Positions 2,828-53,132 of a stretch of 64,000 nucleotides of DNA are shown here, piece by piece. Origin of the DNA: Eledone cirrhosa (taxonomy: Eukaryota). A program made the position numbers and the translations under genes. The notes under the pieces are model-generated. The model ran no database searches and had not been told where the DNA came from. It saw only the letters and a list, made by a program, of their open reading frames with translations. The DNA lies in contig OZ024742.1 in the NCBI GenBank assembly GCA_964016885.1, positions 196,540,001-196,604,000 on the forward strand. The letters run 5' to 3'. Numbering within the stretch: the first letter of the stretch is position 1; every line of letters begins with the position of its first letter.

Positions 2828-2876
2828 TTGCTCCGAAGACACCAAACCTCGGTTTGGAAGAAACAATTGTAAGCGA
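2828..2876 (+). ncRNA. Degenerate minimal type I hammerhead ribozyme
   Basis: ttgct-CCGAAGA-ca-ccaaacc tc ggtttgg-aa-GAAA-caattg(palindrome)-TA-agcga; core has C where U4 is expected. Confidence 0.6.
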
Positions 2877-2971
2877 ATAAATGGTTTAAACAGAACTTTG
2901 ATTCATGTAATTTCTATATATATATATATACATATTAGTATTGGTGCTCTGAAATAGTGATGTATACATGA

Positions 2972-3279
2972 ATGTATGTATAGTATATTTGGCAATATAC
3001 TGTATGTTTAATTAAAAACATTTTGAAGACTATTTACCATGAGTTTTAAAGTAGTGACAATGTCACTTACTTATTCTCGGCAAAAGCAAGAGAGTGATAA
3101 ACGCTAACGAGCGAGAAACAGGACTGTTGATCACTCTCTTTTGTTTTTGCCAAGAATAAGTTTGTTTTTACCAAGAATAAGTAAGTGACATAGTCACTAC
3201 TTTAAAACTCATAGCGAATGGTTTTCAAAACGTTTTTAATTAAACATACAGTGTATTGCCAAATATACTATACATGCAT
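2972..3279. mobile_element. Fold-back MITE (long imperfect inverted repeat, ~130-bp arms)
   Basis: ATGTATGTATAGTATATTTGGCAATATACTGTATGTTTAATTAAAAAC... is the reverse complement of ...GTTTTTAATTAAACATACAGTGTATTGCCAAATATACTATACATGCAT. Confidence 0.8.
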
Positions 3280-4451
3280 CCCAAAACTGTAATAATAGGA
3301 ATCGGGTTGACTACCCTCTATCCGGGAAATGCCTCTCCAGTAACATTGTCTACAAATGTAAGGTCGAAACGCCCACCACCCGTAGGGCCTACATAAGGCT
3401 AACCGCCAATAGATTCAAACAGCGTTTTTACATGCACACCCATTCTTTTCTTAACCCTTTAAGAAGGAATATGATGTCTCTTTCAGCTTATATCTGGAGT
3501 CTAAAAGACAACCACACCCAATATAGGTTACATTGGGAGATCCTAGCTAAGGTTAGATTGTATAACGGAAATAAAAGATCATGCGATCTTTGCGCCGCTG
3601 AAGCTCTGGAAATACTCTACGCCAATGACCACATCTTATACAAAAAATCTGAAGCAATTTCGGCTTGTAAACATAAATTGCATAAAACTTTCCTGTATTA
3701 CAGCCCCACATTATCCCCTAACGGATAGTACGATCTATACGCGGATAATTTACGTCTTGATGTGGTAGCTAAGTATATTTTATGTTTATACCATTAGTTA
3801 TTTGTATAGGTAAGTATACCTTACCCGTATGTTTTGTGAAGGTACATATACTTTCTCGTACGTATATTTGTTTGTATTTTTTATAGGTGTATATATTATA
3901 TTATATATACTGGTACATGTGTATATGGTTATGTGTATATGTGTATTTTGTGTTTGTGTGTGTATTCGTGTTTGCACGTATGTAAGGTGTGTATATGTGT
4001 ACTTTGTGTTTTTGGTTGACGTACGTTTAGTGAACATATGTGTATTTACCTGTAGGTATGTGTGTGTGTGCGTTATTTACGTATTTATGTGTGTATATTT
4101 ATATACGTTTATATAATTATATGTATACACACATGCGTGGATGCGTGTATGTATATATTTAATTATTGTTGATTTCAATAACCTCTGTCATTTTCGTTCT
4201 ACTAATTTATTTACATTATTCTTAACTTTGAAGCCGAGAATCATTCGGTTTCGTAAATAGATTATTAGTCTACGACTTCATTTATACCATAAACGTGGTT
4301 TTGTCTTTGCGTGTAATTGTTATCATCGAACCACATAATGACGTATCATCTTCGCTTTTTTCCGTTCATTGCCAGGGAACGTCTCCACGAACCAAAGTAT
4401 CGTCTTCCTGTTTTTCGAAATATTTACTTCTGCGTACACAGATTGATTTTT

Positions 4452-4506
4452 TTTTGTTTCAGAAGATCCCGTTAAGGGTGAAAGCAGCGATTCTTTGCTT
4501 AAATTT
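4452..4506 (+). ncRNA. Hammerhead-like motif with variant CAGAAGA core in PLE terminus
   Basis: ttt-CAGAAGA-tccc gttaa gggt-GAAA-gca..tgc-TT-aaa; second copy near 16240-16292 has the same core. Confidence 0.4.
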
Positions 4507-4653
4507 AATCTGTTATTTTAATAAATATTTGCTCTAGGGTTCTTCTATATTTGATATATTTTTCCTTATCGAGCCCTCTTTGGATTTTAGTCTATTTTAT
4601 TATTATTACTATTTGGCTCCCTCGGTTGAGCACTCTATTGACTTATATTCATC

Positions 4654-6732
4654 ATGCAGAAAGAACATCTGAATATTTCTACAAAGAACATACCCGTACC
4701 AAGCAGGAATACATACCTAAAACTCCCGATACAGAAAACGGACTCGTTCCTTAAAAGGTTACGTTGGCGTGCCTTTTATTTCGATAATCAGGAAAAAGCG
4801 GACAATAAACAGGTTAAATTTGGGTTTAAAACTTATAATAACCCTCCGAATAACCCAGCATTTCTACCCTTCGAAACCGATGTCTTGGAACTCATACGTA
4901 GTATCAAATTTTGGAATAGGAGTAATTCCTTCCAGCAGGACCTGAAGAATAGAATTCGATCTATTAAGGATTCTACTGCCGTGCACGTCCACTCCGACAA
5001 AACTGGAAATCTATATCAAGTGGAGCGCAGTACTTACCATCAACTGCTACATAATGCTGTAACTAAGGATTACCGGAAAACTAATCGGAGTGTTATTAGT
5101 GACATCAACGATGCTGGGTTTAAAATCACCTCTGAACTCAATATCCAGGACCGGACTGAACCTCTGGACCCTATTTAACCCCACTTTACCCGAAGGATCA
5201 CAAACCCAATTTCGCCAACACCACTCTATTCGGTTTATTAACCCTACGAAGTCCGATTTAGGTAGACTTAGTAAAAGGATTTTAGATAGAATTATACCTG
5301 AAATTAGAAGCTTGGCTCCTCTTGCACAGTGGAACAATTCTTTCGCGGTGATTGATTGGTTCAATGGCATTTGCAACAAGGAATATTGCCGTTTTATCCA
5401 ATTCGACATCAATAACTACTACTCCTCCATCAATTTACCACTTCTTCTTAGAGCTATCAATTTCGCCAAAATACTCACGGTGGTTAAGGATTTCGAAGTT
5501 GATGTCATCCTCAATGCCCGTAATTCGGTGACTAATTTCGACGACTCTATTTGGATTAAAAATTCTAATAGTACCCCATTCGACGTGAGTATGGGCGCCA
5601 GCAATTCGGCGGAGGTTACTGATCATATCGGCCTTTTCTTTCTTTTCTCTATCAAGGAAGAATTCCCCAATGTGGGCGGTGGTTTGTACCGTGATGACGG
5701 TCTTTTGACTATGCCAAAGTGCGGTCCACGCGCTTGTGACAGGTTCAGAAAAGAACTCACAGCCTTCTTTAAAGGCTTCAACCTCACCATACAGGTTGAG
5801 GCCAACTTCTCGGTCGTTAATTACCTCGACGTTACCCTCAATTTATCGAATGGCTTGCACTACCCGTATAGAAAGCCGAATGATACGCTTAATTACATAA
5901 GTAAGCACTCTAACCATCCTGCCATTATAACCAAAAACCTGGTAAGAGACGTTTCTTTGAGGCTTTCTCGTCTATCTACAAACTAGCATATTTTCACCGA
6001 CCATTCCACATATTACAATGAAGCTCTTGCTCGGAGTGGATTTGTCGATAAGGTAGGATATACTAAATATGAGCATAGACCAACGAAAATAGATCCCTAC
6101 ACATTATATGGTATAGCCCACCATATAATATGGAGGTGGCCACACCATTAGCTAAGATCTTTCTCTCCCTAATTAAGAAGCATTTCCCTTCAGCACATAA
6201 ATATAATAAAATGTTTAATAGAAATACCATTAAAATATCTTACTCTACGATCCCTAACCTTGCACATAACATCACTGCTTCAAATTTAGCTAAATTACCT
6301 AGCCATAGGAACACGTGCAACCCTGTAGCTAGTACTAACTGTAATTGTAGGAATCGGATTGACTGTCCTCTATCCGGGAAATGCCTCTCCAGTAACATTG
6401 TCTACAAATGTAAGGTCGAAACGCCCACGCCCCGTAGGGCCTACATAAGGCTAACCGCCAATAGATTCAAACAGCGTCTTTACATGCACACCCATTCTTT
6501 TCTTAACCCTTTAAGAAGGAATATGATGTCTCTTTCAGCTTATATCTGGAGTCTAAAAGACAACCACACCCAATATAGGTTACATTGGGAGATCCTAGCT
6601 AAGGTTAGATTGTATAACGGAAATAAAAGATCATGCGATCTTTGCGCCGCTGAAGCCCTGGAAATACTCTACGCCAATGACCACATCTTATACAAAAAAT
6701 CTGAAGCAATTTCGGCTTGTAAACATAAATAG
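4654..6732 (+). pseudogene. PLE polyprotein: reverse transcriptase plus GIY-YIG endonuclease, disrupted
   Basis: ORFs 4654-5178, 5090-5986, 6130-6732: SDKTGNLY, FIQFDINNYYSSI, MGAS, GLYRDDGL, NYLDVTLNL, YRKPN, SNHP, CNCRNRIDCPLSGKC, IVYK..AYIR, CDLC. Confidence 0.9.
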
Positions 6733-7539
6733 CATAAAACTTTCCTGTATTACAGCCCCACATTATACCCTAACGGATAGTACGAACACTACGCGGATAA
6801 TTTACGTCTTGATGTGGTAGCTAAGTATATTTTATGTTTATACCATTACTTATTTGTATAGGTAAGTATACCTTACCCGTATGTTTTGTGAAGGATCGTA
6901 TACTTTCTCGTACGTATATTTGCTTTTATTTGTTATAGGTGCATATATTATATTATATATACTGGTACATGTGTATATGGTTATGTGTATATGTGTATTT
7001 TGTGTTTGTGTGTGTATGCGTGTTTGCACGTATGTAAGGTGTGTATATGTGTACTTTGTGTTTTGGTTGACGTACGTTTAGTGAACATATGTGTATTTAC
7101 CTGTAGGTATATGTGTGTGTGCGTTATTTACGTATTTATGTGTGTATATTTATATACGTTTATATAATTATATGTATACACACATGCGTGGATGCGTGTA
7201 TGTATATATTTAATTATTGTTGATTACAATAACCTCTGTCATTTTCGTTCTACTAATTTATTTACATTATTCTTAACTTTGAAGCCGAGAATCATTCAGT
7301 TTCCTAAATAGATCATTAGTCTACAACTTCATTTATACCATAAACGTGGTTTTGTCTTTGCGTGTAATTGTTATCATCGAACCACATAATGACATATCAT
7401 CTTCGCTTTTTTCCGTTCATTGCCAGGGAACGTCTCCACGAACCAAAGTATCGTCTTCCTGTTTTCCTTCGGTTGCAACGTTTTTCGAAATATTTACTTC
7501 TGCGTACACAGATTGATTTTTTTAGTTAAGGGTGAAAGG

Positions 7540-7737
7540 AACGATCGACATTCATCAAATTGGACCGAGGAAACAATGTTTCCATTGGTCTTTCCAATTG
7601 CTAATACAATGTATCGGTCGCATCTCTGGGTAGAAGGAGCAACGTGAAATAAAGTGTCTTTCTCAAGGACATAGCGCATCGACCGGTCCGGGAATCGAAC
7701 TCACAACCTCACGATTGCGAATCCAATTCTCTAACCA
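7540..7737 (-). mobile_element. tRNA-derived SINE (same family as 12760-12970)
   Basis: Minus strand: TGGTTAGAG..GTTGTGAGTTCGATTCCC (A/B boxes), TGTCCTTGAGAAAGACACTTT core, tail GGAAACATTGTTTCCTCGGTCC. Confidence 0.8.
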
Positions 7738-8609
7738 CACACACACACATATATATACATATATATATAAGAACTAGAAAATAAGTTCCGACTATGGAAA
7801 CAGAATTTTTAATCAAAAGCTCTGAAAGTAAACTTAGAAAAAAGTAAAGTGCTATTGAGTAGGAGAGAAGATAAGACCCAGATTCCTTCAGGGAAGTTGC
7901 TCTGTTCAATATGTAAAAGGGTGTAGGCATAAACTCCATACGACATACACAATATAAATCTTGGGTACACAAAATATGTAGTGGGATAACGGGTAGACTA
8001 ACAGGAAGGTGGTAGGAGAGGGTGGGGAGTGGGATGGGTGGAGGTCATTGGTTGATAGAAAATAGAATTCATTAAAAGCTAATTCTTTAAAGCTATAATT
8101 TATATTTAGGGTAACAAAGGCAGAAAGAATTCTATAAACAAGTTCAGAATGGGGTGCCACTCAATATTTTTAAGTTTCTCTTAAGTTAACAATGCCTATA
8201 TTTCAGGTGTCTATAAGATCGTTGGGGGTCGGTCATGGTTGATGGATTTAAAGAAAAGGGAAATTCTTTAAAAGCTAATTCTTTAAAGTTCTACTTAGGG
8301 TGACAAAGGCCTAGAGAATTCTATAGACCAGTTCAAAATATTGAGTGTCTATCATACAATTATCTTCTAGTTTCTCTTAAGCTATATTCTAGGTGTCGAC
8401 AGACACATTCACAAACACACACACGAGCCCCCCCCCCCACATACATATATATATATATTTTTTTTTAGTATATGTTGGTTGTATACCAACACCTCATTAT
8501 GCAGATTGGAGCACTCGACGAAGTGCGCAGGTTGGTTTGGTTACTCCGGAGTAATGTAAAATAAAATAAAATAAATAAGTCAAATGTTTAAAATTTGGCT
8601 TCGTTTATT

Positions 8610-8664
8610 ACTGCTATATATATTTCGGTGACAGCCATTTTTGGCTGTGACCTCTTCAGGCAGT
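8610..8664 (-). ncRNA. Type I hammerhead ribozyme, intact core
   Basis: actgc-CTGAAGA-ggtcacagcc aaaaat ggctgtcacc-GAAA-tatata-TA-gcagt. Confidence 0.85.
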
Positions 8665-8726
8665 CCGAATTAGTGTGGTAGAGACGAGTACACATGTTGT
8701 TGAGGTGTATAACTTTGTCAATACTC

Positions 8727-10540
8727 AATTTTTAGCGATGTCCAATACGGACCTAACTCGAGAGGAGGTGAGCATCATACACGCCGCAAGAAAGACCTTA
8801 ATCCGTTTCGATGGAGACCTTTGGACCAGGAGTGATTGGCAAAATAAATTTGACATCACGATGGGCTCCAGTGACTCAGCACAGGTAACGGACCTGGTTG
8901 GGCTCTTCCTGCTGAAGCAGATAAAAGACGAAATCCCCTGCCTGGGCGGCGGATTATATCGTGACGATTCTTTCTTCACAGTATATGACCACAGCACCAA
9001 TATATTAGAGGGAATGAGGAGGCGTATTCGCCATTTCTTTAAGAACCAGGGGCTCAGTATCGAACTAGACCCAAATAGAAAGGTAGTTAACTTCCTAGAC
9101 ACCACCCTAAACCTGAACACCGAACAATACTACCCCTACCACAAGCACAACGAAAAACTCGTGTATGTTAACGTCAAGTCAAACCACCCTAGATCCATAA
9201 CGAAGGCCGTAGTGAAGAGTGTCTCGGACAGGATCACCAGCCTGTCCGCAAGTAAGGAAATCTTCGATAACAACGCGGAATATTACAACGCAGCTCTAAA
9301 TAAGGCGGCACATGGCCAAAATATAACATATAGTCCGAAACGCCGGGATGGGGATGGCCCAACGGACACCCATACCCGCGTTGTCCAGGGGAGGGGGGGG
9401 GGGCGAACCCTAACAATACAGGCAGAACAGAAACAAATAGGCACCATGAGCCCGACACCACACGGGCGTTGGTGACGAGTACGCTTAACCATGAGATGAA
9501 ACCCAATATGAGTAGCAGTCTCAGGGGTGATGCTAACCACCCCAGGCCCGACGACCCCAACCACAGGACACGTGGGGGGTGGGGGCAACGGGGACCACCC
9601 CACGGTAGATCTCCCAGCGCGGGCAACGACTACCTCACAGATTCGGGCCGTGAAGATAGCAAAACGTATAGCGCCCAAAGGGGAAGCAACAATGCGGGAA
9701 CCACCAGCAACCCAACAAATCTCCAACAACTCACGACGCCCCCGACCCACACAAATAGGAGGGGACACAGAAAAATCACGTGGTACAACCCACCCTACTC
9801 AGCGGCCCTAAAGAACAGCTTAGCCCGATCATTCTTTGGAGCACTTGATAAATGCTTCCCGAGGGACAATAGATACCCCAAGATCTTCAACAGACACACT
9901 GTGAAGCTCTCGTATTCCACCACGAGAAATCTGGCCCAACACATAGCTAGCATCAACAGGAGTAGGCTTAAAAACCACACACAACCAGAAGATGGCAATA
10001 CAAGCACTCAGCAGAACCATGTGAAACCCAAACAGACATGGGGACCCCGCACCGTGCCTGGGGGAAGACCGCCACGTAACACCTAACGGAAACCCCAATC
10101 TAGGCACGCAGAGGTCGACCACCCTCTGCAACTGCAGAAACCCCGGATCATGCCCCCTTGGTAATGAATGCCTTAAGAAGAACCTAGTATACGGTTTTAG
10201 GGTTAAAACCCCCAACTCCGAACACCTCTACATAGGAACCACATCAACGAGCTTTAAAGACCGCTGGTATAACCATCGCCATTCCTTCAATAAAGAGGCC
10301 AAAAGGAAAAGTACGGCTCTCTCCGACCTGATCTGGAAGCTTAAGCTGGACAGGACCCCGTACTCTCTGGCCTGGTCCATAATCAGGAAAGTACCACCCG
10401 ATAAAGGGGGATCTTGCATATGCAAACTATGTCTGAAAGAGACCCTCGAGATACTAAGAGGTGGAAGCGGCCTGATAAACCTCAGAACCGACTTCTTCGG
10501 GACATGCAGACACCTCAGGACCTTCCTCAAGATATATGAA
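8727..10540 (+). pseudogene. PLE RT C-terminal half plus GIY-YIG, frameshifted
   Basis: FDITMGSSDSAQVTDLVGL, GLYRDD, NFLDTTLNL, SNHP, ITWYNPPYS, KIFNRHTVKLSYS; from 10127 in another frame CNCRNPGSCPLGNECLKKNLVY..LYIGTT..FKDRWYNH, CKLC. Confidence 0.88.
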
Positions 10541-11924
10541 CAGTAGCAACACAATAAGATGTGAACTCCCCTCAAGCTATAGGGACTTCTCCAGAACATG
10601 TAGACACCTCTCGGCCAAACCTCCCTCAAGCTATATGGGCAGTAACAACACCATAGGTTGGGAACTCCCCTCAAGCCATAGGGACCAACCCAGGCTGAGC
10701 AGACACCATGATAGCCTAGAGATTGATTCTGACACAGCCTTTATAATTTGGCCAACATCTTTATAACACACACACACATTTTACTTTACTTGATTTTTGA
10801 TTTTTCATTTTTGATTTCTCATTATTCATTTGTTATTTGTTTTCTGTTTTCTTCACTTTATCACCTTATATTTATATTTATATTTATATTTATATTTAAG
10901 TTGAGATTGGTTATAACACACACACATTTTATTTGATTATCCTATTTCGCTTTATTCTTTTACCATCTTGTTCCTCCTACCACTTTATCCAACATATTTC
11001 TGACCTTGAGATTGGTTATAGCACACACACATTTTATCTTATTTTATTTGAATCTTCATTTTTATTTTTCACTTTTCATTTTCATTTTTCATTCTCCATT
11101 TTCATTTTTCATTACTTTTTCATTACTTTTTCATTACTTTTTCATTACTTTTTCATTAATTTTTCATTTATTCTTTATTCTCTATTTATTATTTATTTTC
11201 TGTTTTCTTCATTTTATTACCTCTATTTCTTCATATACATGGCAGAACCCCCACCACCAACACCATGGGAGATGGTGGTAGGAGGGATGAAGAAACACAC
11301 ACACAGATACTTCTAAATTGTCAGCAGCAGCAAGACATAAGCTGACCACAACACCAACAACACTACCAAAATAAGGGTAGAGGTCAGATGTACTTAACAA
11401 TAGCAAACACAAACATTACATGGAGCCTCACCCCAGAAAGAATTTCTATAGACTTTGGACTGAGGAATGCTCTCAAAACTGACCAATAGGAAGAGTGACC
11501 TTACAAATCTTTATAACATTTGATGGGTATAACACACACATTTTATTCGATTATTTTATTTTATTTTGTCCTTTTACCATCTTATTCCTTCTACCACTTT
11601 ATCATTTTTTTTAGCTGACTCCAACAACAACACCACTACCAACATAAGAATAGAGGTCAGATGTACCTAACAATAACAAGAACAACAATTACAGATTGGC
11701 TTGCCTCAGAACGAATTTCTATAGACTTTTGACTGAGGAATGTTCTAACAACTGGCCAATGAGAGGAGAAGAGGCTCTTTGACGCTGGATTTCGTTTGTT
11801 TAAATTCATATGATTCCAGTTCCTCAGTGAAATAACAACCCAACCAGGAACTGGGCATACCAGAGTATTGACAAAGTTATACACCTCAACAACATGTGTA
11901 CTCGTCTCTACCACACTAATTCGG

Positions 11925-11979
11925 ACTGCCTGAAGAGGTCACAGCCAAAAATGGCTGTCACTGAAATATATATAGCAGT
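11925..11979 (+). ncRNA. Type I hammerhead ribozyme in PLE 3' terminus
   Basis: actgc-CTGAAGA-ggtcacagcc aaaaat ggctgtcact-GAAA-tatata-TA-gcagt, sense to the PLE ORF. Confidence 0.85.
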
Positions 11980-12035
11980 AATAAACGAAGCCAAATTTTA
12001 AGCATTTGACTTATTTATTTTATTTTATTTTACAC

Positions 12036-13164: not shown

Positions 13165-13277
<113 letters not shown>

Positions 13278-13284
13278 ATATAAG

Positions 13285-15801
13285 ATCAAAAGATTGTTAA
13301 AAGAGTTCCAAGTATTTTATTATGCGCATTTCAAAAACAAATATCATCATGGGATGATATCTGCGTTCTCATCAGATAAAATAGGGATACATGATATGAA
13401 GCTTAAAAAACACTTGTGAATAGTGAAGTTTTAAATCAACATATGAAAAATAATTTAAGATTGATGTATGAGATTGGGAAAAAGTGAGTGGGGGTTGGAA
13501 AAGGTAAGGAAGAGGAGGAGATGAGAGTAAAGAATGGTGGGGGAGGAGTATAAGAAGGAAGGATGAGAAAGGAGGAGAGATGAGTGATAGAGAGAGAGAG
13601 ACAGCCTTTACAACTGAGAAAAAAAAATATTTTCTCACAGAGATAAGTTAAAAAGCCGTTGGAAGATAATAGATAATTTAAAAGAATTTGAAATTAAAGT
13701 TAATGAGGTTTATGCATGAAGAGAAAAAGGAATTAAGAATAATATTAAATTAAGGTTTGTATATTGAAGGGTTTAATAATATGTGCGAGGAAAAGAAATT
13801 ATTAATATGTATTATTAAAATAAAAATATTAATGTTATTAAGGATATAATGTGAAAAGGAGAAGAATGAATGAGTTATGAATTTAGAGGAATTAGTTAGG
13901 GTTTAAATTTGTGTTTATGTAATGTAATATGTGTACGTAATATGTGTACGCAAATAGTTTGTTTAAAAATGACCGCAGAAGGCAAAGAAGAAAAGAATGT
14001 TTAAGGAAGAAAATATCTAACATCAAAAAATATATATGTTTACGAAATATTTTCTAATGGTAATAATATAATATATTAAAAGAAATTAGTTAGGGTTTAA
14101 GTTTGTTTTTATGTATTGTAATATGTAAAAGTCAAACGAGCATGAAAGGATGAGATAAGAGAAATTTAAGGAAGAAAAATCTAACGTAAAAAAAAATGTT
14201 TATGTTTACGAAGGACTATTAAAGGTAATACTATAATGTATTATAAAAATAATAATTTTTAATGCCAATGATATGAGGAAAGATGGAAGAATGGATAATG
14301 TTGTGGTGAGTAATAATAAGAATTGAGAAGTAGTTAGGAAGAAAAAGTACAGATTAGAGGTTAGAAATTAAATAGAAAAGAGGAAGAAAGGAAAGTGATA
14401 AAGAGGAATGATATAGAATGAGTAACTTGTATTATATAATATATAATAAATAATATTGAAATAAGGTAGAAAGATGGGTATATTTTTAAAAGATATATAA
14501 GCCTTTGAGAAAAAGGATTTTAAACTAGTAAGGTATTAGATATTAGCTGTATACTTTATGGAATGTTCTGTGGAATTTATGCAAGCAGAGAGAAAATAAA
14601 TCCGTGCGTCTATTTATTATAGAATTGAAATTAGATATAATGGTAAATTTCTCAGCTAGGCAAAGATTACATGTTCAGGATAGGGAGGCATTCAAGTAGG
14701 GAGAGGCAGAACAAACTTTTCTCCAAAGATGTTATAGTTAATATTTTTGTCTTTCAAGGACCATATGAGTTCTGAGAGTGCCGTGTTAGTTCTTTTAAGT
14801 TGGTATTTAAAAGACGAATTGTGATTATAAAATCTAGCTTTGAAGGAGGTGGAAGTGGAACCGAAATAGGTAAAGGAATTGGTACCAGTTATAACCTTAC
14901 ATTCATAGACTAAGTTTTTATCAAGACAATGTTATTGAGAGGACATTTAGTTCTAACAGGGCAATTACAATTACGATTAGAGAAATTATCAGAGTTATTA
15001 ACAAGTAACCTAGTGTTATTTATAGGCGGAATTGGATTGGAGAAGTTATTTACGATAGGAATAATAGTTTCCTGATTTAGATTGGTATTATGAACATTCA
15101 ACGAAGTTACGTTTGACGTCGTATTTGAGTTGACAGAATCTAGCCTAGAGTTAACAATGACGTCGGGAGTACTACTGCTATTATTATGACGCTCAGTGTT
15201 GGAAGGATGTGATTTAATATTTAATATTTTATTGTTGTGTTTAGAGATAATGCTAGAGATGTTGGAAGAGGTGGAATAAGAAAATGTTATTGTATGTTTG
15301 TTAAAGATTTTACTATAGATATGTGAGGGAGGGAAGCATTTATCTAAGGCCCTAAAGAATAGGTTAGGAATATTATTATTAATAGAAATAGAGAAAGGAG
15401 CATTATAGCAGATTATATTTTTGTATCTAGGTCTTTTATTTAAGTTATTGGAATAATCATAATTGATTATTTTACTGTAAGACCTTCTAGGATGGTTTCT
15501 TTACTGTATTTAATTTTATCAGGATAACCGGCTTTAGAAAGCGTATTATTATAGTAATTGGCGTTAGCATCGAAGATATTTTTATTAGAGGATAGGTTTG
15601 ATATTCTTTTTCCAATATTACTGACTATAGCATTTTAAAAGTTAGTGGGGTGGTTAGATTTAAAATTAACATAATTTAGATTCTCATTGTTTTTATGGTA
15701 AGGGTAATATAGGCCAGTGTCAAGATTAAGGGATATATCCAAGAAGTTAGCTAGTTTGACGTTGTTATCAAATTCAATTTTAAGGTTATGTTGCTTAAAG
15801 A
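13285..15801 (-). mobile_element. Degenerate 5'-truncated AT-rich Penelope-like element (Naiad-like)
   Basis: Minus-strand translation gives NFLDISLNL, YPYHK, CYNAPFS, KIFNKHTI, CNCPVRTKCPLNN, YFGST..FKARFYNH, CNLCLAE; long pyrimidine-rich 3' UTR ending in a hammerhead. Confidence 0.8.
13313..13383 (-). ncRNA. Type I hammerhead ribozyme with long stem II
   Basis: tattttat-CTGATGA-gaacgcagatatcatc ccat gatgatatttgttttt-GAAA-tgcgca-TA-ataaaata; downstream of the minus-strand PLE ORF. Confidence 0.85.
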
Positions 15802-16778
<977 letters not shown>

Positions 16779-16860
16779 CAGTGTAACATGCAGTTACTGT
16801 AGGTTCACCACAGCAAAGGTCCAACAGCTTTTGATTCCAGATTCAGGCCAGATCGATACA

Positions 16861-16905
16861 GATTGAATCTGAAGCTGCTCAATAGCGAAACGCACGTCAC
16901 CAATC
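16861..16905 (+). ncRNA. Degenerate minimal hammerhead
   Basis: gattg.aat-CTGAAGC-t-gct caat agc-GAAA-cgcacg-TC-ac-caatc; core and stems partly eroded. Confidence 0.45.
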
Positions 16906-16953
16906 AATAAACTTAATGAAGACATAACAAATCAACCTTTTATTATTATATTA

Positions 16954-16984
<31 letters not shown>

Positions 16985-18265
16985 TTCGTTTCTGAATTTG
17001 TTAAGCAAGATTATTTATCTGAAAACGTGTGTTGAAACCGATATTTTTATGCTTTGGGAGGGTCATGTTGCCAATAAGAAACACACGCACCAGTTGCTTT
17101 CACTCCAATTTATTATAAATTAAATTTATAAATTTAAGAATTTATAAATTTCCGGTTGGTTGGTTGGTTCCACAACCAGACGATTGTTCATATATTGTCA
17201 AAGTTCATTCGTCACACATTCTGTGACCTCTTCAGTGAATGGGGATTGTTTTCTTTGTTTTTTATGCCACTCCTTTGTTCTGTCCTACGCCATCTTGTTT
17301 TTGTGTGTGTTGTGTGCTTAGTTTGCGCATGTGTTACATCCGGGTGTCTGTGTGTGTTTATATTTGTTTATTTAATATGTTTATTTACATGTTACTGGTT
17401 GGTTGTTTGTTCTATGTGCGTGTGTGTTTCATTTTGTCCTTAATTGTAAGTTGTGATGTTGCTATTCCATTCATGTTTTCTATTTAATTTTGGTTGGAGT
17501 TCATTTATGTTTATTGCCTCTGATTTGTCTTTTCTGACTGTAGATTCTATTTTTATTTCTATGTTCTTTAATTTACCCTTATGTTCTATTTTAGCATGTT
17601 GGTAGAGTACAGATGATTCTTTACTATCTTGAAGCTCTCGCCAGTGTTCATTTATCCGTTCTCCTATACTACTAGCTGTCTCACCTATGTACACTATATT
17701 TTTGTCTCTACATTGTCCTTCAGTACATTTTATGCTATACACTACATTTCTAGTTTTACAGTTAATATGGGGGCTTAGTTTACAGATTATACATTTCTTA
17801 TCTATACAGGGAGGCCTTTGAAAAGAGTATGTATTGCTAATAAGTGTTTTTATGGAGGTACCTGGTCTTTCTACTATCTTAATATTGAGTTTATGTTTAT
17901 CTAGGGCCCTTCTAAATTTGTAAGCTAATTCACCTCTAGGGGTTGTATCGATGAACATTACACTCTGGTATTTATTGCTATCATACCATGAGTTTATTCT
18001 ATTAACCTTATTCCTAGTTCTTTCTATTCCAAAATTTGCTTCTATACAAGGGGCAGGTCCCATTTGTATCATTATTTACCATTTTTTGCCATTTGATTCT
18101 GGCTCCTCTATACACTCTGATTTTATCTCTCTGATTGTAACCAGAGAACTGCATACGGTGGATGAAGTGTTGTATGTGTCTCTCTAGTTCTTTGGGGTTG
18201 CACATGCGGGACACGTTTCTCATCACCCATACCAAATCCGCAATCAGACCCTCCCAAAGCATAAC
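16985..18265 (-). mobile_element. 5'-truncated Penelope-like element of a different subgroup (Cys-rich linker plus GIY-YIG)
   Basis: ORFs 18014-18262 and 17440-18072: RMQFSGY, CIDKKCIIC..CKTRNVVYSIKC..C..VYIGET..RINEH..EAININELQPKLN; CTGAAGA plus GTCACA/TGTGAC hairpin near 17205-17240. Confidence 0.85.
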
Positions 18266-22257: not shown

Positions 22258-22697
22258 TAGTTTAGGAGAGATGGTCACCATTTTCGAAGGCTGCAGTGTT
22301 TGTATGATTTAGAGGGGAGTTCGTTACCCTAGCTTGGCTGGTAGAACATCTCTACTATTTGTTGTTAGGTGTAGGTACACAATTAAGCAAAAAAGAACAT
22401 ACCTCGAGATTATATGTACATGAGCATTATAATCAGAGAAATTAACAAAACAGGTTATCATATCAGTTGTTCCTAGGTTGGTAATTCGTAATTATCATTA
22501 ATTGGATGTCTTCAATTATCACATGATCGCATGGTTTGCTATCGCATTTTCGCCACTGTTAAACACATCTGTTCGCCTCAAGAGACAAAAGTCGAAGAGA
22601 GAGTTTATGCAGCTACTGGCGTCAGAACGTGACGCCAAAACTAAGGGCAGTTAATTGACTACCTCCAAAGTCAAAACTAGGTGGCGTGATCTTCTAT
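22258..22697. mobile_element. ~440-bp non-coding insertion in the satellite
   Basis: Non-satellite sequence; diverged second copy at ~23353-23752. Confidence 0.6.
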
Positions 22698-29477: not shown

Positions 29478-29482
<5 letters not shown>

Positions 29483-29535
29483 GTAAGTATGTATGTATAC
29501 GTACATACATATATGTATACAGACGTACAGTAGCA

Positions 29536-29571
<36 letters not shown>

Positions 29572-29901
29572 CAGGTACACATACATATATGCACGCATCA
29601 GTTTAGCGGACGCTTATTATAACGCCGCTTTGTTCGTTTGTCAACAAACTGAACAGCCTGAATTTATGCCATACGGTGTTAAGGCAACCACGTCACCTTT
29701 TTGTTCAACACTGACACAGGAACGATGTACTAGTTTCAAGCTTGTTAGCTATCATCAGCACCGTTTACCCATCTGCCAGATAGTTGAACGTTCGAAAGTA
29801 TATACTTTCCTTATGAAAATTAACGGCTGAGCAGCCTAATTTGCATATTGAGTGAGTTAAATCGGTCAGGCATACCGAAAACGATAAGTTGAAAAAAACT
29901 G

Positions 29902-29953
<52 letters not shown>

Positions 29954-30011
29954 TGCTACTGTACGTCTGTATACATATATGTATGTACGTATACATACAT
30001 ACTTACATTTA
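29478..30011. mobile_element. Small non-coding element with ~65-bp inverted termini carrying a hammerhead
   Basis: TAAATGTAAGTATGTATGTATACGTAC...GTACAGTAGCATGCAT is the reverse complement of ~29945-30011; part of the terminus recurs at ~47985-48030. Confidence 0.6.
29721..29765 (-). ncRNA. Minimal type I hammerhead ribozyme, intact core
   Basis: aacggtg-CTGATGA-t-agct aaca agct-t-GAAA-ctag-TA-catcgtt; 7-bp stem I, GUA cleavage triplet. Confidence 0.85.
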
Positions 30012-30216
30012 AGTAAGTGCCATACTAAGAGTGAGAAATGAAATTTCGTTTTCATTTTTTCAACTTATATATATATATATACATACATATATGTATGTAT
30101 GTGTATATGCATGTGTATCTATTCTCATTATAACGTTTATACAGGTGTTGCAATAGGTTTGCATTGTGATTATCATATAACATTACACATGTTCCACACA
30201 GAGGGGTAATACACGT

Positions 30217-33285: not shown

Positions 33286-33288
<3 letters not shown>
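31220..33288 (+). mobile_element. RTE-clade LINE, internally deleted
   Basis: APE motifs (STHNVGPL, CVQEVRW, GGVGIL, SAYAPQ, SQIDF, QHRLV), RT N-terminus (GKAAGPSEI), C-terminus (YGHVMRM..RGRPRKTW), (GAT)n tail. Confidence 0.9.
31913..32253 (+). mobile_element. Possible solo-LTR-like insertion in the RTE endonuclease region
   Basis: TGT...ACA ends, TATATAAA, internal direct repeat TTATGTGAAAGATTCACCACTA; no TSD seen. Confidence 0.35.
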
Positions 33289-33349
<61 letters not shown>

Positions 33350-36115: not shown

Positions 36116-36268
36116 CAAATATAAATGATTATAAATCATTTGCATACTCATCTTAATAAGTTGAAATATCTGACTTTTCTTCTCTTATCCCTTCAGTATT
36201 CCAAGGAAAACTTGAACCGTTAAGGTATCTTTTTGTTGGTTATGTCAAAATTTATAAAACAAACTTTG

Positions 36269-36329
36269 TATTTTATCTGATGAAAGCGTACCAAAGTTTT
36301 GGTACCCTTGAAATATATATAATAGAATA
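36269..36329 (+). ncRNA. Type I hammerhead ribozyme with no adjacent ORF
   Basis: tattttat-CTGATGA-aag c gtacc aaagtttt ggtac c ctt-GAAA-tatata-TA-atagaata; 8-bp stem I. Confidence 0.82.
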
Positions 36330-36377
36330 AATATGGTTTTATAAATATAGTTTCCATTTATTTAATATCATTATTCA

Positions 36378-44591: not shown

Positions 44592-44594
<3 letters not shown>

Positions 44595-47320
44595 TCATCA
44601 TCATCATCATCATCAAGGTTTAGCGTCCGTGTTCCACGCTTGCATGGGTTTGGATGGGGGTTTTCCCACTTGAGGCAAGAGTGGTTGTCTTGCTCGCATA
44701 GGACTGTCTGGCGGGTTTTCTACAGCTGGATGCCCTTCCTAACACCAACCACATTTACAGTGTGGGGCTGGGAGGTTTTTACCGTGTTGCCTACACGGCC
44801 ACATTTACAGCGTGGACTGTGTGTTTTTTTGTCGTGACACCTACACGATCTCATTTGTTTCGGCCTGGATGTTGTGGCACCAACATAACTTTACATTGAA
44901 AGGGGCGGTGTGGATGGGGTGGGGGTGGTGGGACGGGGGTGTGTTTTGATAGAGATGCCTACTGACTGTAGTAGGTTTTACTTTGTATTTAGGTAAGGCG
45001 GGTCTTCTCTATTACTGAGTACCGCCAAAGGTCTCGGTCCAGTGACATTGTCTTGGAGAGGTGTAAGCGTGTGAGGTCGGAATTTATCATGTCGTCCCAG
45101 GTTTTTCTGGGTCTGCCTACTCCGTGGCTACCGTCTATCTTTATTGCCCTGCACTTTGTTATACAGCTGTCGTCTTTCATGCGCATCACGTGACCGTACC
45201 AACGTAGCCTTCTCTCGAGTAAACAACATCTGATCCCTCTTATTTCTAATTTTTTCCTTAGTTCGTTTATGCTTAGCCGTTCACGTATATTACTATTGCA
45301 CATCCAGCGGAGCATGCAAGCTTCGTTCCTCTCTAGTCTGCGTATATCCTCTGCACACAATGCCCAGGTCTCACTGCCATGCAACATTGCTGTTCGTATG
45401 CAAGCATCATACAACCTGCCTTTCATTTTTAGGGAGAACCCTTTAGCGGCTAATAGTGGTATAAGCTCTCTGAACTTTTTCCATCCAGTTCTGACTCTAG
45501 CTACTGTACTTTCAGAGCACCCTCCCCCACTGCTGATTTTGTCACCCAGGTAACGGAAGCTGTCCACTATTTCTATAGAACCCTCTGCGCAATTGAAAGA
45601 GCTAGTATTTTGTGGGCACTTGCTGCTACTTATTGCACCAGAGCACCGGCCACATGTAAAATCTATGTTCTTAGTTAGCTTACCTGTGATCCCACTACAT
45701 CTTTTATGCACCCATACTTTGCATTTGGGACATAAAATGGAGTTTCTACCTACGCCTTTCCTACACACTGAGCATGGCCATTTCCCGGAAGGGACCGCCG
45801 CCTTATTTTCTTTCCTACAAACTAGAACTTTAGTCTTAGCCAGGTTAATTTTAAGGCCTTTTGATTCTAGGCCGTGCTTCCATGTTTGGAATTTCTTCTC
45901 TAGTTCAGTCATTGATTCAGCTATGAGCGTTAGATCATCTGCGTATAGGAGTTCCCATGGGCAGCCGGTCTTCAACTCCTCTGTTATAGCATGAAGGGCA
46001 ATAATAAATAGTAGGGGGCTAAGAACAGAGACCTGATGGACACCAACTTTTACGCTAAACTCTTCACTATATTCGTTGTTAATTCTAACCTTGCTGACTG
46101 TTTCTTTATACATGGCTTGTATAGCTCTCACAAGCCATTCGTCAACACCTAGTTTTCTAAAGCCCACCAGATAATGGAACGGGGGACTCTGTCGAAGGCT
46201 TTCTCCAAGTCAACAAAAGCTAAGTATAGGGGTTTACTTTTAGCTAGGTACTTCTCCTGTAGTTGTCGTACAATGAAAAGAGCGTCTGTGGTACTTTTGC
46301 CTGACACAAACCCGAACTGCATTTCATCTAGATCAATTCTCTCTCTGATTAGTTGCGCTATTACTTTTTCCGTGACCTTCATGACCTGGTCGATTAATTT
46401 AATGCCTCTATAGTTACACCTATCTAGGGCATCTCCTTTACCCTTGTAACAGTTAATGATGATGCTGCTATGCCAGTCCTTCGGAACAACCCCATTCTGT
46501 ATGACTTGGTTTACTATCTGGGTGACCATGGTGCGTCCCACCGTTCCAGAGGCTTTCAGCATCTCAGCAACTATTTCCGAAGGCCCAGCCGCCTTACCCG
46601 TCTTTATATCTTTGATTGCCTTACTTATTATACTACCTTCGACTAACACTGCTGGTCCCTCTATTGGGTCGATGTGGGGGAGACTGTCTTTCTCCCATTT
46701 GTTCTCCTCATTTAGAAGCCTTTCGTAGTGACACTTCCAAGCTACCTTCTTATCAGCGTCAGTGATGGCAAGTATGCCATCATCATTAAGTACACAGTTC
46801 TCCCCGACAATATCACGGTTTTCCTTGACACATTGCCTAGCAATCCTGAACACCTCACGTTTTTGGTCCTCACGTTGTAGAACATGCTTGAACTTTCTTT
46901 CCTCTGCTTCCCTTCTTGCGAAGTACACTTGTCTCCTAGCTTCCCTCCTGGCCACTTGATAGTCTTCTCTACTTCCCCCATCCCGCCATACTTTCCAAGC
47001 CTGCTTTTTGGCCTAAATTGACTCCTCCACCTTAATGTTCCACCACCATGTTACTCTCCTCCTACCTACAGGCCTGCTCCAGCCACAGACTTCGTCTGCC
47101 GCCGTCAGCAGGTTTGCTTTCAGGAATTCCCACTGTTCCTCTATATTATACGACTCTAATTGCTCTTCCTTACTGTCGAAAGCATCAAGTAATATGCTTT
47201 GAAATTTATTTCTGGCTATGGGGTCCTTTAGCTTCTATATTTTTCTCCTGAGGATAGTCCTCTTCTGCTGTCTAGTACGTCTCGTCCTGACTATGAGGTC
47301 GCTAATTATCAGTCTATGTA
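44592..47320 (-). mobile_element. 5'-truncated RTE LINE with long 3' UTR
   Basis: ORFs 46149-46955 and 44989-46167 with all RT motifs and CSVC..CPKC..HKRC..CGRC finger; (GAT)n tail. Confidence 0.93.
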
Positions 47321-47379
47321 CATAATCAGTACAATCGAAGGAATATATTAGGTTAACGCTTGAAATAGCAGGAAGAGGG

Positions 47380-47415
47380 TCTTAACGTTTTGGACGCTAT
47401 TCCTTCATCAGAAGA
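47380..47415 (-). ncRNA. Degenerate minimal hammerhead
   Basis: tctt-CTGATGA-a-gga atagcg tcc-AAAA(for GAAA)-cg-TT-aaga. Confidence 0.5.
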
Positions 47416-48034
47416 AAGAATGAGAAATTAGATAGATGGAAGGGACAGATGGGGTGGAATTGGAAAAAATGTTTTTAGATAAAAATAACAGGTCCATTCA
47501 TGTTGCCATCTCTTGGAAATATATATATAACCCTAACCATAACCATAAGAACTTTGATGGTCCTACTTTCTTATTTACACATATTCATGTCATATCTTGA
47601 TGATGTGTTGACTGAGATCTCTGCTATTATATATGGATGGGCTTACTTACATATGATCCTGGTAGAGTGCAGGATCATATGTAAGCAAGATGCAGGCTCT
47701 CAGCAACCCTGCTTGAATACTGACCCATCCAAACCTTGCTAGAAGAGAAAACAGGTATTAAATAATGATGAGGACGAGGATGGTGATATATATATATATA
47801 TATGTATATATGATAGGCTTCCACACAATTTCTGTCTACCTAATTCTACTTACAAGACATTGATCAACCCAAAGCTACTCAACAGACTCTTGCACAATGT
47901 GTAAATCTTTGTGACTGAACCCAAAACCATGGTGGTTGCAAACAAACTTCTTAACCATGCAGTTATATAATGAACTAAAAATATAAGTATGTATACGTAC
48001 ATACATATATGTATACAAACGTACAGTAGTATTT

Positions 48035-48638: not shown

Positions 48639-48670
<32 letters not shown>

Positions 48671-48732
48671 GGAGAAGGAAAACTCTGATATAACACCTGC
48701 AACCCTGATGGTATCCAATGATGTTGACTTAC

Positions 48733-48799: not shown

Positions 48800-48854
48800 C
48801 TATAATGGTGTATGTTACGCAAATGGTGTATGTTATGTGCGTGTATGTGTACAT

Positions 48855-48912
<58 letters not shown>

Positions 48913-49040
48913 GTAATCTGAGTTTTTCGAATATTGATTATAATATTCGATTTGTTTGCAATTATGCAAATAGCCTCTTTTATAAGCTATGTCAGTAGAA
49001 TGAGCCCCTCATTCTCACTCTTGTGTTGGCATGCAAACAG

Positions 49041-49089
49041 AACTGCAAACACTAATGTTTCTGGGTGATTACCCTTCATCAGTGCAGTT
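49041..49089 (-). ncRNA. Type I hammerhead ribozyme
   Basis: aactgca-CTGATGA-a-gggt aatc accc-a-GAAA-cattagtg-TT-tgcagtt. Confidence 0.8.
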
Positions 49090-49197
49090 TAATGATTATC
49101 CGTTTACTGCTAATATGCAAATCAGGCCAATCAGTCACTGTATATTTCAGAAAATATCATATTTTCACTAGCTCTGACAGTTAGTAGGTAAGCAGTA

Positions 49198-49250
49198 AAC
49201 TGCACTCACTGATGAAGGGTAATCACCCAGAAACATTAGTGTCTACAGTT
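49198..49250 (+). ncRNA. Type I hammerhead ribozyme with weakened stem I
   Basis: aactgca-ctca-CTGATGA-agggtaatcaccca-GAAA-cattagtg-TC-tacagtt; GUC triplet, 4-bp insertion next to the core. Confidence 0.7.
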
Positions 49251-49416
49251 CTGTTTGCATGCCAACACAAGAGTGAAAATGAGGGGCTCATTCTACCGAC
49301 ATAGCTTATAAAAGAGGCTGTTTGCATAATTGCAAACAAATCGAATATTATTATTAATATTTTAAAAACTCAGATTACATTTATCGTATTCAGCCATGTA
49401 GAGCGATAACTAGTTG

Positions 49417-49495
<79 letters not shown>

Positions 49496-49540
49496 TATAT
49501 ATACACACATACACACCTATATATATATATATATATATAT

Positions 49541-50382
49541 AATAAAATATAGAGAAAAATACTGCAAGTAGCACATGGATAACATGTAATAAAATGAGTC
49601 CCTCATCAGTGATTTGCCGACGATCATCGATATTTCATTGCATTAAAAATCATATACCTCACGTCGGTACAATAATAACCAAAATAAGTTATTAGGACAA
49701 TTGAAACGCGTAAAGCGAGTGAGACAGGAGAACAACACAGAGTATAGCTAACCGTAGGGGAAAGAAACAAGCTTCAAAATTATTCTGTTTAGCATAAGCT
49801 AGGTGAATGAGGTATATGATTTTTAATGCAATGAAATATCGATGATCGTCGGCAAATCACTGATGAGGGACTCATTTTATTACATGTTATCCATGTGCTA
49901 CCTGCAGTATTTTTCTCTATATTTTATTACATATATTTACCACTGCGATTCTGTGTTTTTTTCTCTCTCTCTCTTACTGCTTCCCCAGTCTCTCTGTTTC
50001 TCCCCCTCTGTCATGTCAGTTAACTCTTCCTCACACTTTCACTCACTCACTGTTTCTCTTCTCTTCATTTCATCCTGTACACCACGAAGGCTATTTTTCT
50101 CTCTTCTCACATGGCCAGAGTTCGTGTCAGGTCTGTTTTCTAAAAGCGCTCATATATTCACCTAGCTTATGCTAAACAGAATAATTTTGAAGCTTGTTTC
50201 TTTCCCCTACGGTTAGCTATACTCTGTGTTGTTCTCCTGTCTCACTCGCTTTACGCGTTTCAATTGTCCTAATAACTTATTTTGGTTATTATTGCACCGA
50301 CGTGAGGTATATGATTTTTAATGCAATGCAATATCGATGATCGTCGGCAAATCACTGATGAGGGACTCATTTTATTACACGT

Positions 50383-50394
<12 letters not shown>
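49541..50394. mobile_element. Non-coding element with PLE-like inverted plus direct terminal repeats
   Basis: 49808-49895 repeats directly at 50303-50394 (495-bp period); 49541-49807 is an inverted copy spanning the unit junction. Confidence 0.65.
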
Positions 50395-50419
<25 letters not shown>

Positions 50420-50424
<5 letters not shown>

Positions 50425-51290: not shown

Positions 51291-51443
51291 CATTGGTGAG
51301 GCTAAGTGCACCTGTGTCATTCCAAACATGACATCCTGATTCAAACTAAAAGACAAGATGGAGTAAATAGAACAAGATGAATACACAAAGGAGCAAGAAT
51401 AGTTATTGAGAAGGTCACAGAATGTGTGATGAAAGTGTTTTCA

Positions 51444-52623
51444 TCTATATTATAAAGCTGACGGCGGTATGTATGTCACAAACTTTTCGCTAAACGGCTG
51501 GACCAAAAAGCTCCAAATTTGCACCAGAGATGTAACTTTTTCCAAGTAAGAAAGTGGGGGTATTTTTGTCTTCTAAATTTCGTTAAAAGATTAAAGATAT
51601 TTTATCGTTTATTTAAATATTCACTTCTTTAAAATTTTCAAATGTCAACACTTCCGGTTATACGGCATTCCTCTCGCTTTCTTAGTCTGTCTTTTTAAAT
51701 AGATACATAGCTATAACGTCGCACCCTTATAATATGTCTCTGTATGTCTGGCTGTCTGCATTAGATACATAGCTATAACGTTGCACGCTTATAATATCTG
51801 TCGGTCTGCCTGTCTGCATTGACTTCGCTTTTAACCAACTTTTAATTAATTCAGTGCAAAGATACTGGATATAGTAATAATAATAATAGTTATACTTATA
51901 TATATAATATATATATATATATAATTATAAATTATACGGGTAATATTGTGTATTACCCAATTACCCATAAGATTATTAGCTCAATGTAAAATATCAGATA
52001 TACTATAGAGCAGAAATAACACTTCACAACTATAGATATTACCATTTTCTACATAAACTTTATGACTAACATTATAAAACTTTTCACCTAAATCTTTTCG
52101 CCTATAACTAATATATCTTATAATACTTATAACACCTATATGTATACTCTCACTACACAATTGTCTTACATTTATTGCATATTTTCTGCTATTATTTATA
52201 TTCTTGCTATAATGTTTCATAAGTAATTGAGTTAGAGCATTGGCCTTGCAATCGAAAGGTTGTGAGTTCAATTCTCAGACTGGGTGATGTGTTGTTTCCT
52301 TGAGAAAGACACTTTATTTCACTTGCTCCAGTTTACTCAGCTGTAGAAATGAGATGATAGGGACTGGGGTCCATATCATTCCACTGCAAAGTGGTCGTGG
52401 AGGTGCCACGGCAAAAAAAGCACCCAGCACTCACTGTAAATGAGGTTGGTGTTAGGAAGAGCATCCAGCTGTAGAAATCAAGCCAGAATCAGTTACCGTC
52501 CCACCCTTGCAAGCAGGGAAAAGGCGGACGTAACATGAAATGATGAAATGATGATGAAATGAAGTAATATAAACATGCCAATCTATGTTTAGAATCCCAA
52601 GCAACGCCGGGCCATTCTGCTAG
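51444..52623 (+). mobile_element. Non-autonomous Helitron containing a SINE
   Basis: A|TCTATATTATAAAG 5' end, 3' GC-rich CCCAAGCAACGCCGGG followed by CTAG|T; AT target, no TSD. Confidence 0.75.
52228..52563 (+). mobile_element. tRNA-derived SINE with RTE tail, inside the Helitron
   Basis: Reverse-complement match to 12073-12405. Confidence 0.85.
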
Positions 52624-52701
52624 TAATTAATATGACAACTCAACTAAATAAAGAAACTAATCTAGAAACTAATCTAGAAATGAATTAATCATGTGAATAA
52701 T

Positions 52702-52845
52702 AATTGTTTCTAATTTAGGCACAAGGCCAGCAATTTGAAGGGAAGTCGATTAAATCGACCCCCAATACGTTATTGATACTTTATTTTATCGACCCCCGTA
52801 AGGATGAAAAGCAAAGCTAACCTCGGTAGGATTTGAACTCAGAAT
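52702..52845 (-). mobile_element. Nin-domain SINE fragment
   Basis: Reverse complement similar to 1-122. Confidence 0.7.
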
Positions 52846-53087
52846 ATAAAGGTCTATAACTCTGTGCCAGTCATGTAAGTAATAATAAAACTGATGTGAA
52901 ACTCAACTGGTGTGTGTATATTCATTGGCAGCAAAACCTTCCCAAAATATAACAATATCTGGTTCAACACACAGTATCACATAAAAATCTTGCAAAACAA
53001 ATACAAAAATGAAGTATATATATAAATATACACATTTTTAATATATTGACATGCATTTCCTTATAAATTGAAAAAAAAATTATGGAC

Positions 53088-53132
53088 ACCGTTAATCGAT
53101 TTTCAGATTTAGTTGAGTTTTCATCAGAAGGT
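53088..53132 (-). ncRNA. Degenerate minimal hammerhead
   Basis: acctt-CTGATGA-aaactcaactaaatct-GAAA-atcgat-TA-acggt; palindromic stem III, stems I and II mismatched. Confidence 0.5.

Follow-up and report, generated by a model that had tools for sequence, protein, structure and literature searches.

Hammerhead ribozymes carried by Penelope-like elements (PLEs) and the small tandem units called non-LTR (long terminal repeat) retrozymes are established kinds of sequence in animals. PLE insertions have a one-sided tail and inverted 5' arms (PMC8557442), and a self-complementary stem III is the known signature of hammerheads that act as dimers (PMC4209133; PMC3088659). A PLE origin and PLE mobilisation of retrozymes have already been proposed (PMC7229834; bioRxiv 10.64898/2026.07.22.740005) and retrozymes have been argued to be non-autonomous PLE derivatives (bioRxiv 10.64898/2026.07.22.740005), while the mover and the transcription of animal retrozymes are stated there as open questions. 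Here we analyse a stretch of 64,000 nucleotides from Eledone cirrhosa (assembly GCA_964016885.1, contig OZ024742.1, positions 196,540,001 to 196,604,000, forward strand), called the window below, for which a preliminary description had listed eleven dispersed hammerhead motifs. We consider it likely that these hammerheads end truncated PLEs of the Hydra and Neptune clades together with retrozymes of 340-470 bp that lack an open reading frame (ORF), the latter likely copied by a PLE into (TA)n sites and likely transcribed from promoters of small nuclear RNA (snRNA) type. The kinds of element are known ones; their scale here is unusual, and some of the detail is new and testable.

Hammerhead motifs in the window and in the genome

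We searched both strands with a type I hammerhead descriptor (CUGANGA, GAAA and UH, stem I of at least 4 bp, stem II of at least 3 bp), and compared the counts with 30 local dinucleotide shuffles of the window in 200-nt blocks. The strict descriptor matched six of the eleven reported sites (cores 8659-, 11930+, 13375-, 29758-, 36277+ and 49082-) and no other position, as against a mean of 0.03 and a maximum of 1 in the shuffles. Allowing one core change added 2833+ (U4C) and 47411- (G12A), giving 8 sites against a shuffled mean of 0.7 and maximum of 3. At 49209+ and 53127- the core sequences are retained but the stems are broken. The site at 16861 (core 16868) matched no version of the descriptor; its 11 relatives form a family without CUGANGA, and since its core reads CTTGAG it is not a canonical hammerhead. 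Cores were thus found at ten of the reported sites, the positions first given for the minus strand being the low end of each motif and not the core. A damaged hammerhead at 17235- (GAAT for GAAA), at the 3' end of a Neptune-like PLE, was absent from the earlier list.

The motifs had been described as minimal, from unrelated families and mostly palindromic in stem III. The last point was borne out, with stem III fully self-complementary in 15 of 18 families as against about 4 expected, the inner stem III pairs not being demanded by the descriptor. The eleven motifs fall into 9 families, 8659 and 11930 belonging to one and 49082 and 49209 to another. The word minimal suits the PLE motifs but not the ORF-less ones, because in the four modelled ORF-less families stem I is extended and bulged and stem II compact, unlike most PLE motifs. 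Judged by sequence, these are real type I hammerheads for which cleavage is predicted, and dimeric cleavage through the palindromic stem III is plausible. Computed monomer and dimer energies did not discriminate on the dimer question.

A covariance-type scan, which had been suggested as a check, gave no support: Rfam 15 yielded zero hammerhead matches over the whole window and, on short stretches, a single weak HH9 match at 29758 (18.5 bits, gathering threshold 52) and no hammerhead around 49082 or 36277. Since Rfam misses nearly all these motifs, the numbers of ribozymes given for such genomes are likely to be serious underestimates.

For the genome (assembly size 3.0 Gb) we sampled 99 evenly spaced 10-kb stretches, 990 kb in total. 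The sample held 79 strict motifs, and three shuffles of it gave 0, 0 and 0. The density is 80 per Mb (bootstrap 48-123), which extrapolates to an estimated 240,000 strict motifs (145,000-370,000), and confirms the earlier view of a genome rich in ribozyme-bearing elements. The window, with 94 per Mb, is thus not a hotspot.

Truncated PLEs and ORF-less units

From comparison of their families, which we name by core position, six of the eleven motifs are assigned as 3' ends of Hydra- or Neptune-clade PLEs. The PLE features of the window are as follows.

2137..2936, plus strand: 5'-truncated young Hydra-type PLE copy, an inverted 5' arm with a tail of ~150 nt and then the 3' end; hammerhead 2828-2876
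3285..7523, plus strand: PLE_A, partial tandem of a broken Hydra-clade PLE, from its ORF pieces (4642-6732) and motif reading
8486..8726, minus strand: inverted 5' arm of PLE_B with tail; hammerhead 8610-8664, core 8659
8726..12034, plus strand: PLE_B, 5'-truncated Hydra-clade PLE with reverse transcriptase (RT) and GIY-YIG pieces to 10546; hammerhead 11925-11979, core 11930
13270..15808, minus strand: PLE_C, 5'-truncated Hydra-clade PLE; hammerhead 13313-13383, core 13375
16766..16954, plus strand: old short family with a tail and a fixed 3' end like those of PLEs; retains stem II, GAAA and the palindrome of stem III
16986..18247, minus strand: PLE_D, 3' part of a Neptune-like PLE, GIY-YIG 18075-17443; damaged hammerhead at 17235
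36136..36372, plus strand: 3' tip (237 bp) of a Hydra-type PLE; core 36277 in hammerhead 36269-36329
47320..47519, minus strand: 200-bp 3' tip of a Neptune-type PLE; core 47411, minimal hammerhead, G12A in this copy

Broken PLE ORFs lie at 4642-6732, 8651-10546, 15808-14546 and 18075-17443. The first three show Hydra-clade motifs (DKT and RWR in PLE_A; CxCX5C in PLE_A, PLE_B and PLE_C; CxxC and CxH in PLE_A and PLE_B), and the fourth has a linker of Neptune/Nematis type: CX2-5CxxC precedes GIY-YIG there and in the L112 translation of the 47411 family, Neptune and Nematis not being separable. RT is followed by a GIY-YIG endonuclease at the C terminus, with YRDD in the RT pieces of the window and the RT-endonuclease order in genomic stretches L143 and L154; the Pfam GIY-YIG match is weak (E 3.5e-4, below the cut-off). 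The Hydra-clade assignment of the 2833 and 36277 families was made by tblastn similarity only. Protein searches gave 32 homologues for PLE_A and no longer forms for PLE_D.

An endonuclease lies upstream in long copies of the 2833, 11930, 13375, 36277, 47411 and PLE_D families. The hammerheads 8659 and 11930, 98.8% identical, lie in the inverted arm and at the 3' end of PLE_B, respectively; 13375 has an endonuclease ORF 1.2 kb upstream inside the window, and a near-full PLE_C copy is present in L154. The copies at 2833, 36277 and 47411 look ORF-less because they are 5'-truncated. Their relatives share one fixed 3' end with varying 5' truncation, and longer copies have the endonuclease 0.45-1.5 kb upstream of the motif, as against a background rate of 2.7% for an equally close endonuclease, some matches at odd distances being unrelated neighbours. 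It lies ~1.5 kb upstream in all four long copies of the 2833 family that were fetched (only the endonuclease part is firmly linked to this family) and 445-516 nt upstream in 3 of 23 copies of the 47411 family. Both long copies fetched for the 36277 family reach it, and an RT-endonuclease copy is present in L143; a retrozyme identity for 36277 was rejected, as its longer copies carry the ORF. The lack of an adjacent ORF, taken earlier as a sign of non-autonomy, was thus misleading for three motifs. Eight of the eleven, over half as had been claimed, have no ORF of their own family beside them, but three of these are PLE tips, one is not a hammerhead and only four are truly ORF-less.

Some PLE families appear to spread with altered cores. 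In the 2833 family the core reads CCGAAGA (U4C) in 13/13 motif-bearing copies, the motif being present in 13 of 14 copies; the family is young (98-99% identity, 2203 candidate matches in the genome), and U4C reduces hammerhead activity in vitro (PMC3088659). By its sequence PLE_A is a second family spreading without a canonical core; a degenerate hammerhead-like CAGAAGA...GAAA was seen in two window copies, at ~4455 and ~16250, the one at ~4455 not being among the eleven reported motifs. Such families bear on the need of PLEs for the ribozyme. The hammerhead of the 47411 family reads GAAA-CG-UU, and G12A, at a CpG, is found in 5 of 12 copies, a frequency that matches neutral decay, as expected. 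At 49530-50385 we also observed an element in three inverted or direct pieces that ends ~25 nt past CTGATGA and whose opposite strand has GAAA-CGCG-TA; the 'half core' cases of PMC8557442 look much like it, and L151 has a similar end.

The remaining four motifs (29758, 49082, 49209 and 53127) sit in three ORF-less units of ~340-470 bp that wrap, that is, the sequence upstream of a copy continues into the unit, and by these features are non-LTR retrozymes. To this extent the earlier proposal of non-autonomous, retrozyme-like RNAs holds.

29478..30068, minus strand: insertion of a young 473-bp retrozyme, direct arm 29898-29478, inverted arm 29900-30068 with a tail of 59 nt; core 29758 in hammerhead 29721-29765, preceded by an octamer 88 nt upstream
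48907..49420, both strands: single insertion with two arms, from an older ~410-bp retrozyme; the inverted arm has core 49082-, and the direct arm has core 49209+ plus a 35-nt tail; octamer at ~49115, U1/U2-like element at ~49131
53016..53218, minus strand: decayed 5'-truncated copy of an old ~340-bp retrozyme; core 53127

Genome searches scored the best 40 of 426-2769 candidates per family. Among the candidates scored, identical copies of the 29758 family are numerous and lie on many chromosomes; the 473-bp unit of this family contains an internal (TA)n tract, and in one array ten ribozymes of the minus strand and five of the plus strand are arranged head to head, with a period of 470-477 bp and no ORF. 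The ~410-bp unit of the 49082/49209 family wraps in L048 and L168, and the ~340-bp unit of the 53127 family also wraps. Consecutive complete units were seen in the 29758 family and in L177; for the 49082 and 53127 families there are copies longer than the unit only. Unit length is constant across different chromosomes, and no endonuclease was found upstream in 62 copies of the 29758 family or 21 of the 49209 family.

Further ORF-less families in the sample are L059 and a 310-bp array, L177. The latter (L177:3850-9330), a fourth ORF-less family, has a perfect 310-bp period with 5 minus-strand and 12 plus-strand ribozymes head to head; a foldback without ribozyme at 2957-3285 of the window looks by eye like part of its unit. 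The sequence upstream of one 49082-family copy, used as a probe, found only an unrelated ~110-bp hairpin family. A fold z-score of -8.45 for the 473-bp unit was set aside because its (TA)n tract pairs with itself, and contigs from four sequencing runs aligned to this unit contributed no usable information.

Could all the motifs be pseudo-LTR fragments of autonomous PLEs, the ORF-less units being multimers of such fragments from an ORF-bearing parent outside our sample? A PLE origin is true for 6 of 11 motifs, and only the best-scoring candidates of each family entered the comparison. The 0/62 and 0/21 copies with an upstream endonuclease speak against it, however, as do the wrapping of the units at constant length on different chromosomes, and a ribozyme architecture and promoter module unlike those of every PLE family seen; we regard this explanation as unlikely. 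The view of the preliminary description, that most ORF-less motifs are independent non-autonomous RNAs, appears to us slightly less probable still. It draws on the 27 of 79 sampled motifs that lie in ORF-less families and the 17 assigned to neither class, but 35 of 79 are PLE-linked and 17 of the 27 derive from one array. When neighbours were merged, leaving 53 insertions, 29 were PLE-linked and 10 ORF-less.

Insertion signatures and predicted promoters

The retrozymes end as PLEs do. We located the ends of 32 terminal copies in the 29758 family. Fifteen stop at one site, 12 at another lying 59 nt further on and 5 elsewhere, and nearly all ends at the two sites are followed by (TA)n, which follows Hydra-type and Neptune-type PLE ends alike. 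A tail was found on exactly one arm in 9 of 11 arm pairs, and the same one-sided tail is present in the window copies of 49082/49209, PLE_B and 2833. In vitro, the Anolis PLE enzyme starts cDNA at two adjacent sites and both target strands are extended (PMC11167929). These signatures suggest that a PLE protein copies retrozyme RNAs, and candidate helpers are the young Hydra-type PLEs found in this genome. Because the products of reverse transcription have fixed 3' ends, located 50-320 nt beyond the ribozyme, the motif persists even in a copy truncated to 200 bp, which explains the motif density.

Just beyond the first 3' end, the tails of the 11930, 13375, 36277 and 16868 families have in common a hairpin resembling ACTC...GAGTGCT, which is a candidate signal for RT binding; a weaker likeness to it is seen in the tail of the 49082 family. 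The units of L147:5759-9600 come in two microsatellite variants that take turns (A/B/A/B), and a different variant makes up the first unit and the minus arm. This suggests a dimer template and template switching.

Promoters were compared with the U1, U2 and U6 genes of the same genome, using a matrix from 9 distinct U1/U2 promoters. TCA(G/A)T is present at -56 to -58 in all nine; the host U1/U2 promoters commonly show TCAGT at -57, TATATA near -30 and AATTA near -90. Upstream of 49209 the matrix scored 17.9, a value reached by none of 4000 random windows, and 10 direct arms of this family scored 9.8-18.6 at -72 to -79. Eight of 11 members of the 29758 family, and 2 of 3 from the 49082 family, have the octamer ATGCAAAT 80-92 nt upstream of the core, and no examined member of the PLE-linked families has it (background 0.5%); 10 of the 12 octamer 11-mers in the 990-kb sample fall in retrozyme families. 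An upstream module is common to the 29758, 49209 and L059 families (z 4.5-9.2, 0/200 shuffles).

In three host U6 promoters the octamer is at -76 to -78 and TATA at -30, with 46-48 nt from octamer to TATA; an octamer at about -77 is unusually near the start. Seven extra U6 loci were of no help, six having no start tag and the seventh no promoter. In the 53127 family the distance from octamer to TATA is 47 nt in all 10 octamer-bearing copies (of 12), a G follows 77 nt after the octamer in most copies, and there is a T-run after the ribozyme; the exact composite pattern (octamer, TATA, G, T-run) is present in 3 of 12 copies. The retrozyme units are likely transcribed from internal promoters of snRNA type, predicted as U1/U2-like in 49209 and U6-like in 53127.

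Several observations weigh against PLE copying and snRNA-type transcription of retrozymes. The U1/U2 matrix fails on the 29758 family (-1.7) and on L059 (-12.6), and the 310-bp L177 retrozyme has no octamer. The U6 comparison is based on only 3 distinct promoters, and the T-run, 48 nt past the 53127 core, would halt polymerase III before the full unit. In the 53127 family no more than 3 copies got through the filter of the upstream-endonuclease check. Two arm pairs break the one-tail rule; L036 has no tail, and the L147 pair consists of inner units that were mis-scored. Copy counts include arrays and best-hit copies, so the copies are not independent. The A/B alternation, seen in one array, is obtainable by DNA-level amplification too. 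This last point and the perfect 310-bp period of L177 also fit a satellite that a PLE end seeded once and that was then multiplied at the DNA level, with no current RNA step; identical copies on many chromosomes, with two fixed ends beside (TA)n and often inverted arms, make that account of the ORF-less units very improbable, though DNA-level amplification may lie behind the growth of single arrays. Chance matches in AT-rich repetitive DNA can be dismissed almost entirely: with one core mismatch the 990-kb shuffles yield 9-13 matches beside 19 additional real ones, but the zeros for the strict set refute a chance origin of that set, and the stem III palindromes lie outside the descriptor.

The preferred explanation, PLE-copied and snRNA-type-transcribed retrozymes alongside truncated PLEs, would work as follows. 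The promoter inside one unit would drive transcription of the next, and the multimeric RNA would be cut by the hammerhead, probably as a dimer via the palindromic stem III; the cut unit may circularise. The PLE protein would then use both nicked strands of the target to prime cDNA at two fixed sites on the RNA, and the products would be two-armed insertions in which one arm has a tail. Dispersed single copies are, for the most part, likely inert. We tentatively propose, as a possibility that may well prove wrong, a lineage radiation of SINE (short interspersed element)-like retrozymes, with external promoters of U1/U2 and U6 type held in a circularly permuted unit and moved by Hydra-clade PLE enzymes via two-strand, two-site priming. 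Such a unit would keep external snRNA-gene promoters that ordinary retroposition would lose. If true, this genome would exceed all others reported in its richness in hammerheads and would allow a direct test of the movement of animal retrozymes.

The window also contains a 50-bp satellite at 20504-28348 (two or three blocks, ~86% matches, well over 100 copies), a Tc1/mariner transposase ORF at 43213-44181 (322 codons, stop to stop), and broken long interspersed element copies at 31360-34955, 44989-47012 and 56972-63128, including an RT that has a PHD finger and two L1/Tx1-like elements inverted relative to each other (57171-59307 and 63364-61205, 82%).

Comparison with described systems

In a literature search that did not reach most subscription journals and supplements, we found no paper on these families, no PLE end signatures (two fixed 3' ends, one-sided tail, inverted 5' arms, (TA)n sites) on retrozymes, no such motif density and no U1/U2- or U6-matching promoter module in retrozymes. 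In the text covered of a 2026 octopus repeat annotation the word 'ribozyme' was not found (PMC13282606). Published counts are 126,247 motifs in axolotl and more than 6,000 in a coral (PMC7229834), and 235 Rfam hammerhead matches in giant squid (PMC6962438); counting methods differ between studies, so the comparison is rough. As in the metazoan PLE hammerheads described by Cervera and de la Pena (2014, PMC4209133), there are many families per genome, mostly as single truncated copies, with close inverted pairs and a palindromic helix III; that study gives ~2,000-9,000 motifs per genome as against ~240,000 extrapolated here with a different descriptor.

The PLEs of the window are like the Hydra-clade PLEs of Craig et al. 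(2021, PMC8557442) in having a C-terminal GIY-YIG, DKT, the CxCX5C linker, CxxC and CxH, and also (TA)n targets, a hammerhead near the 3' end, inverted 5' arms and tails. They differ in that PLE_A has RWR for RWK, tails are 35-150 nt compared to 30-40, and the core has U4C in one young family and is degenerate in another. The Anolis Poseidon element PAc in vitro (Frangieh et al. 2024, PMC11167929) is alike in that its tail is explained by two adjacent start sites for RT, both strands of the target being cut and extended and the targets being AT-rich; it is unlike in being an autonomous element of another clade, with a hammerhead that is protein-assisted and dispensable for insertion in vitro.

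Non-LTR retrozymes of metazoans (Cervera and de la Pena 2020, PMC7229834; Li et al. 2026, bioRxiv 10.64898/2026.07.22.740005) likewise consist of tandem units without an ORF, a few hundred bp long, that carry type I hammerheads and coexist with PLEs. There the link between retrozymes and PLEs is co-occurrence and pseudo-LTR similarity, whereas here it is PLE end signatures on the insertions, and no retrozyme promoter is described in the portions covered of those two papers. The mover and the transcription of retrozymes become testable with a young family whose copies are identical and which has fixed insertion ends and candidate promoters. Newt satellite 2 and schistosome SM-alpha (PMC2220036, PMC6765202) are also hammerhead repeats with an internal promoter that needs tandem copies to propagate, the promoter of newt satellite 2 being an snRNA-type polymerase II promoter according to a passage that cites it (PMC2220036). 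In contrast to both, three related families here share a predicted octamer module, which in one of them matches U1/U2 elements of the host, and a U6-like octamer-TATA layout is predicted in a fourth family.

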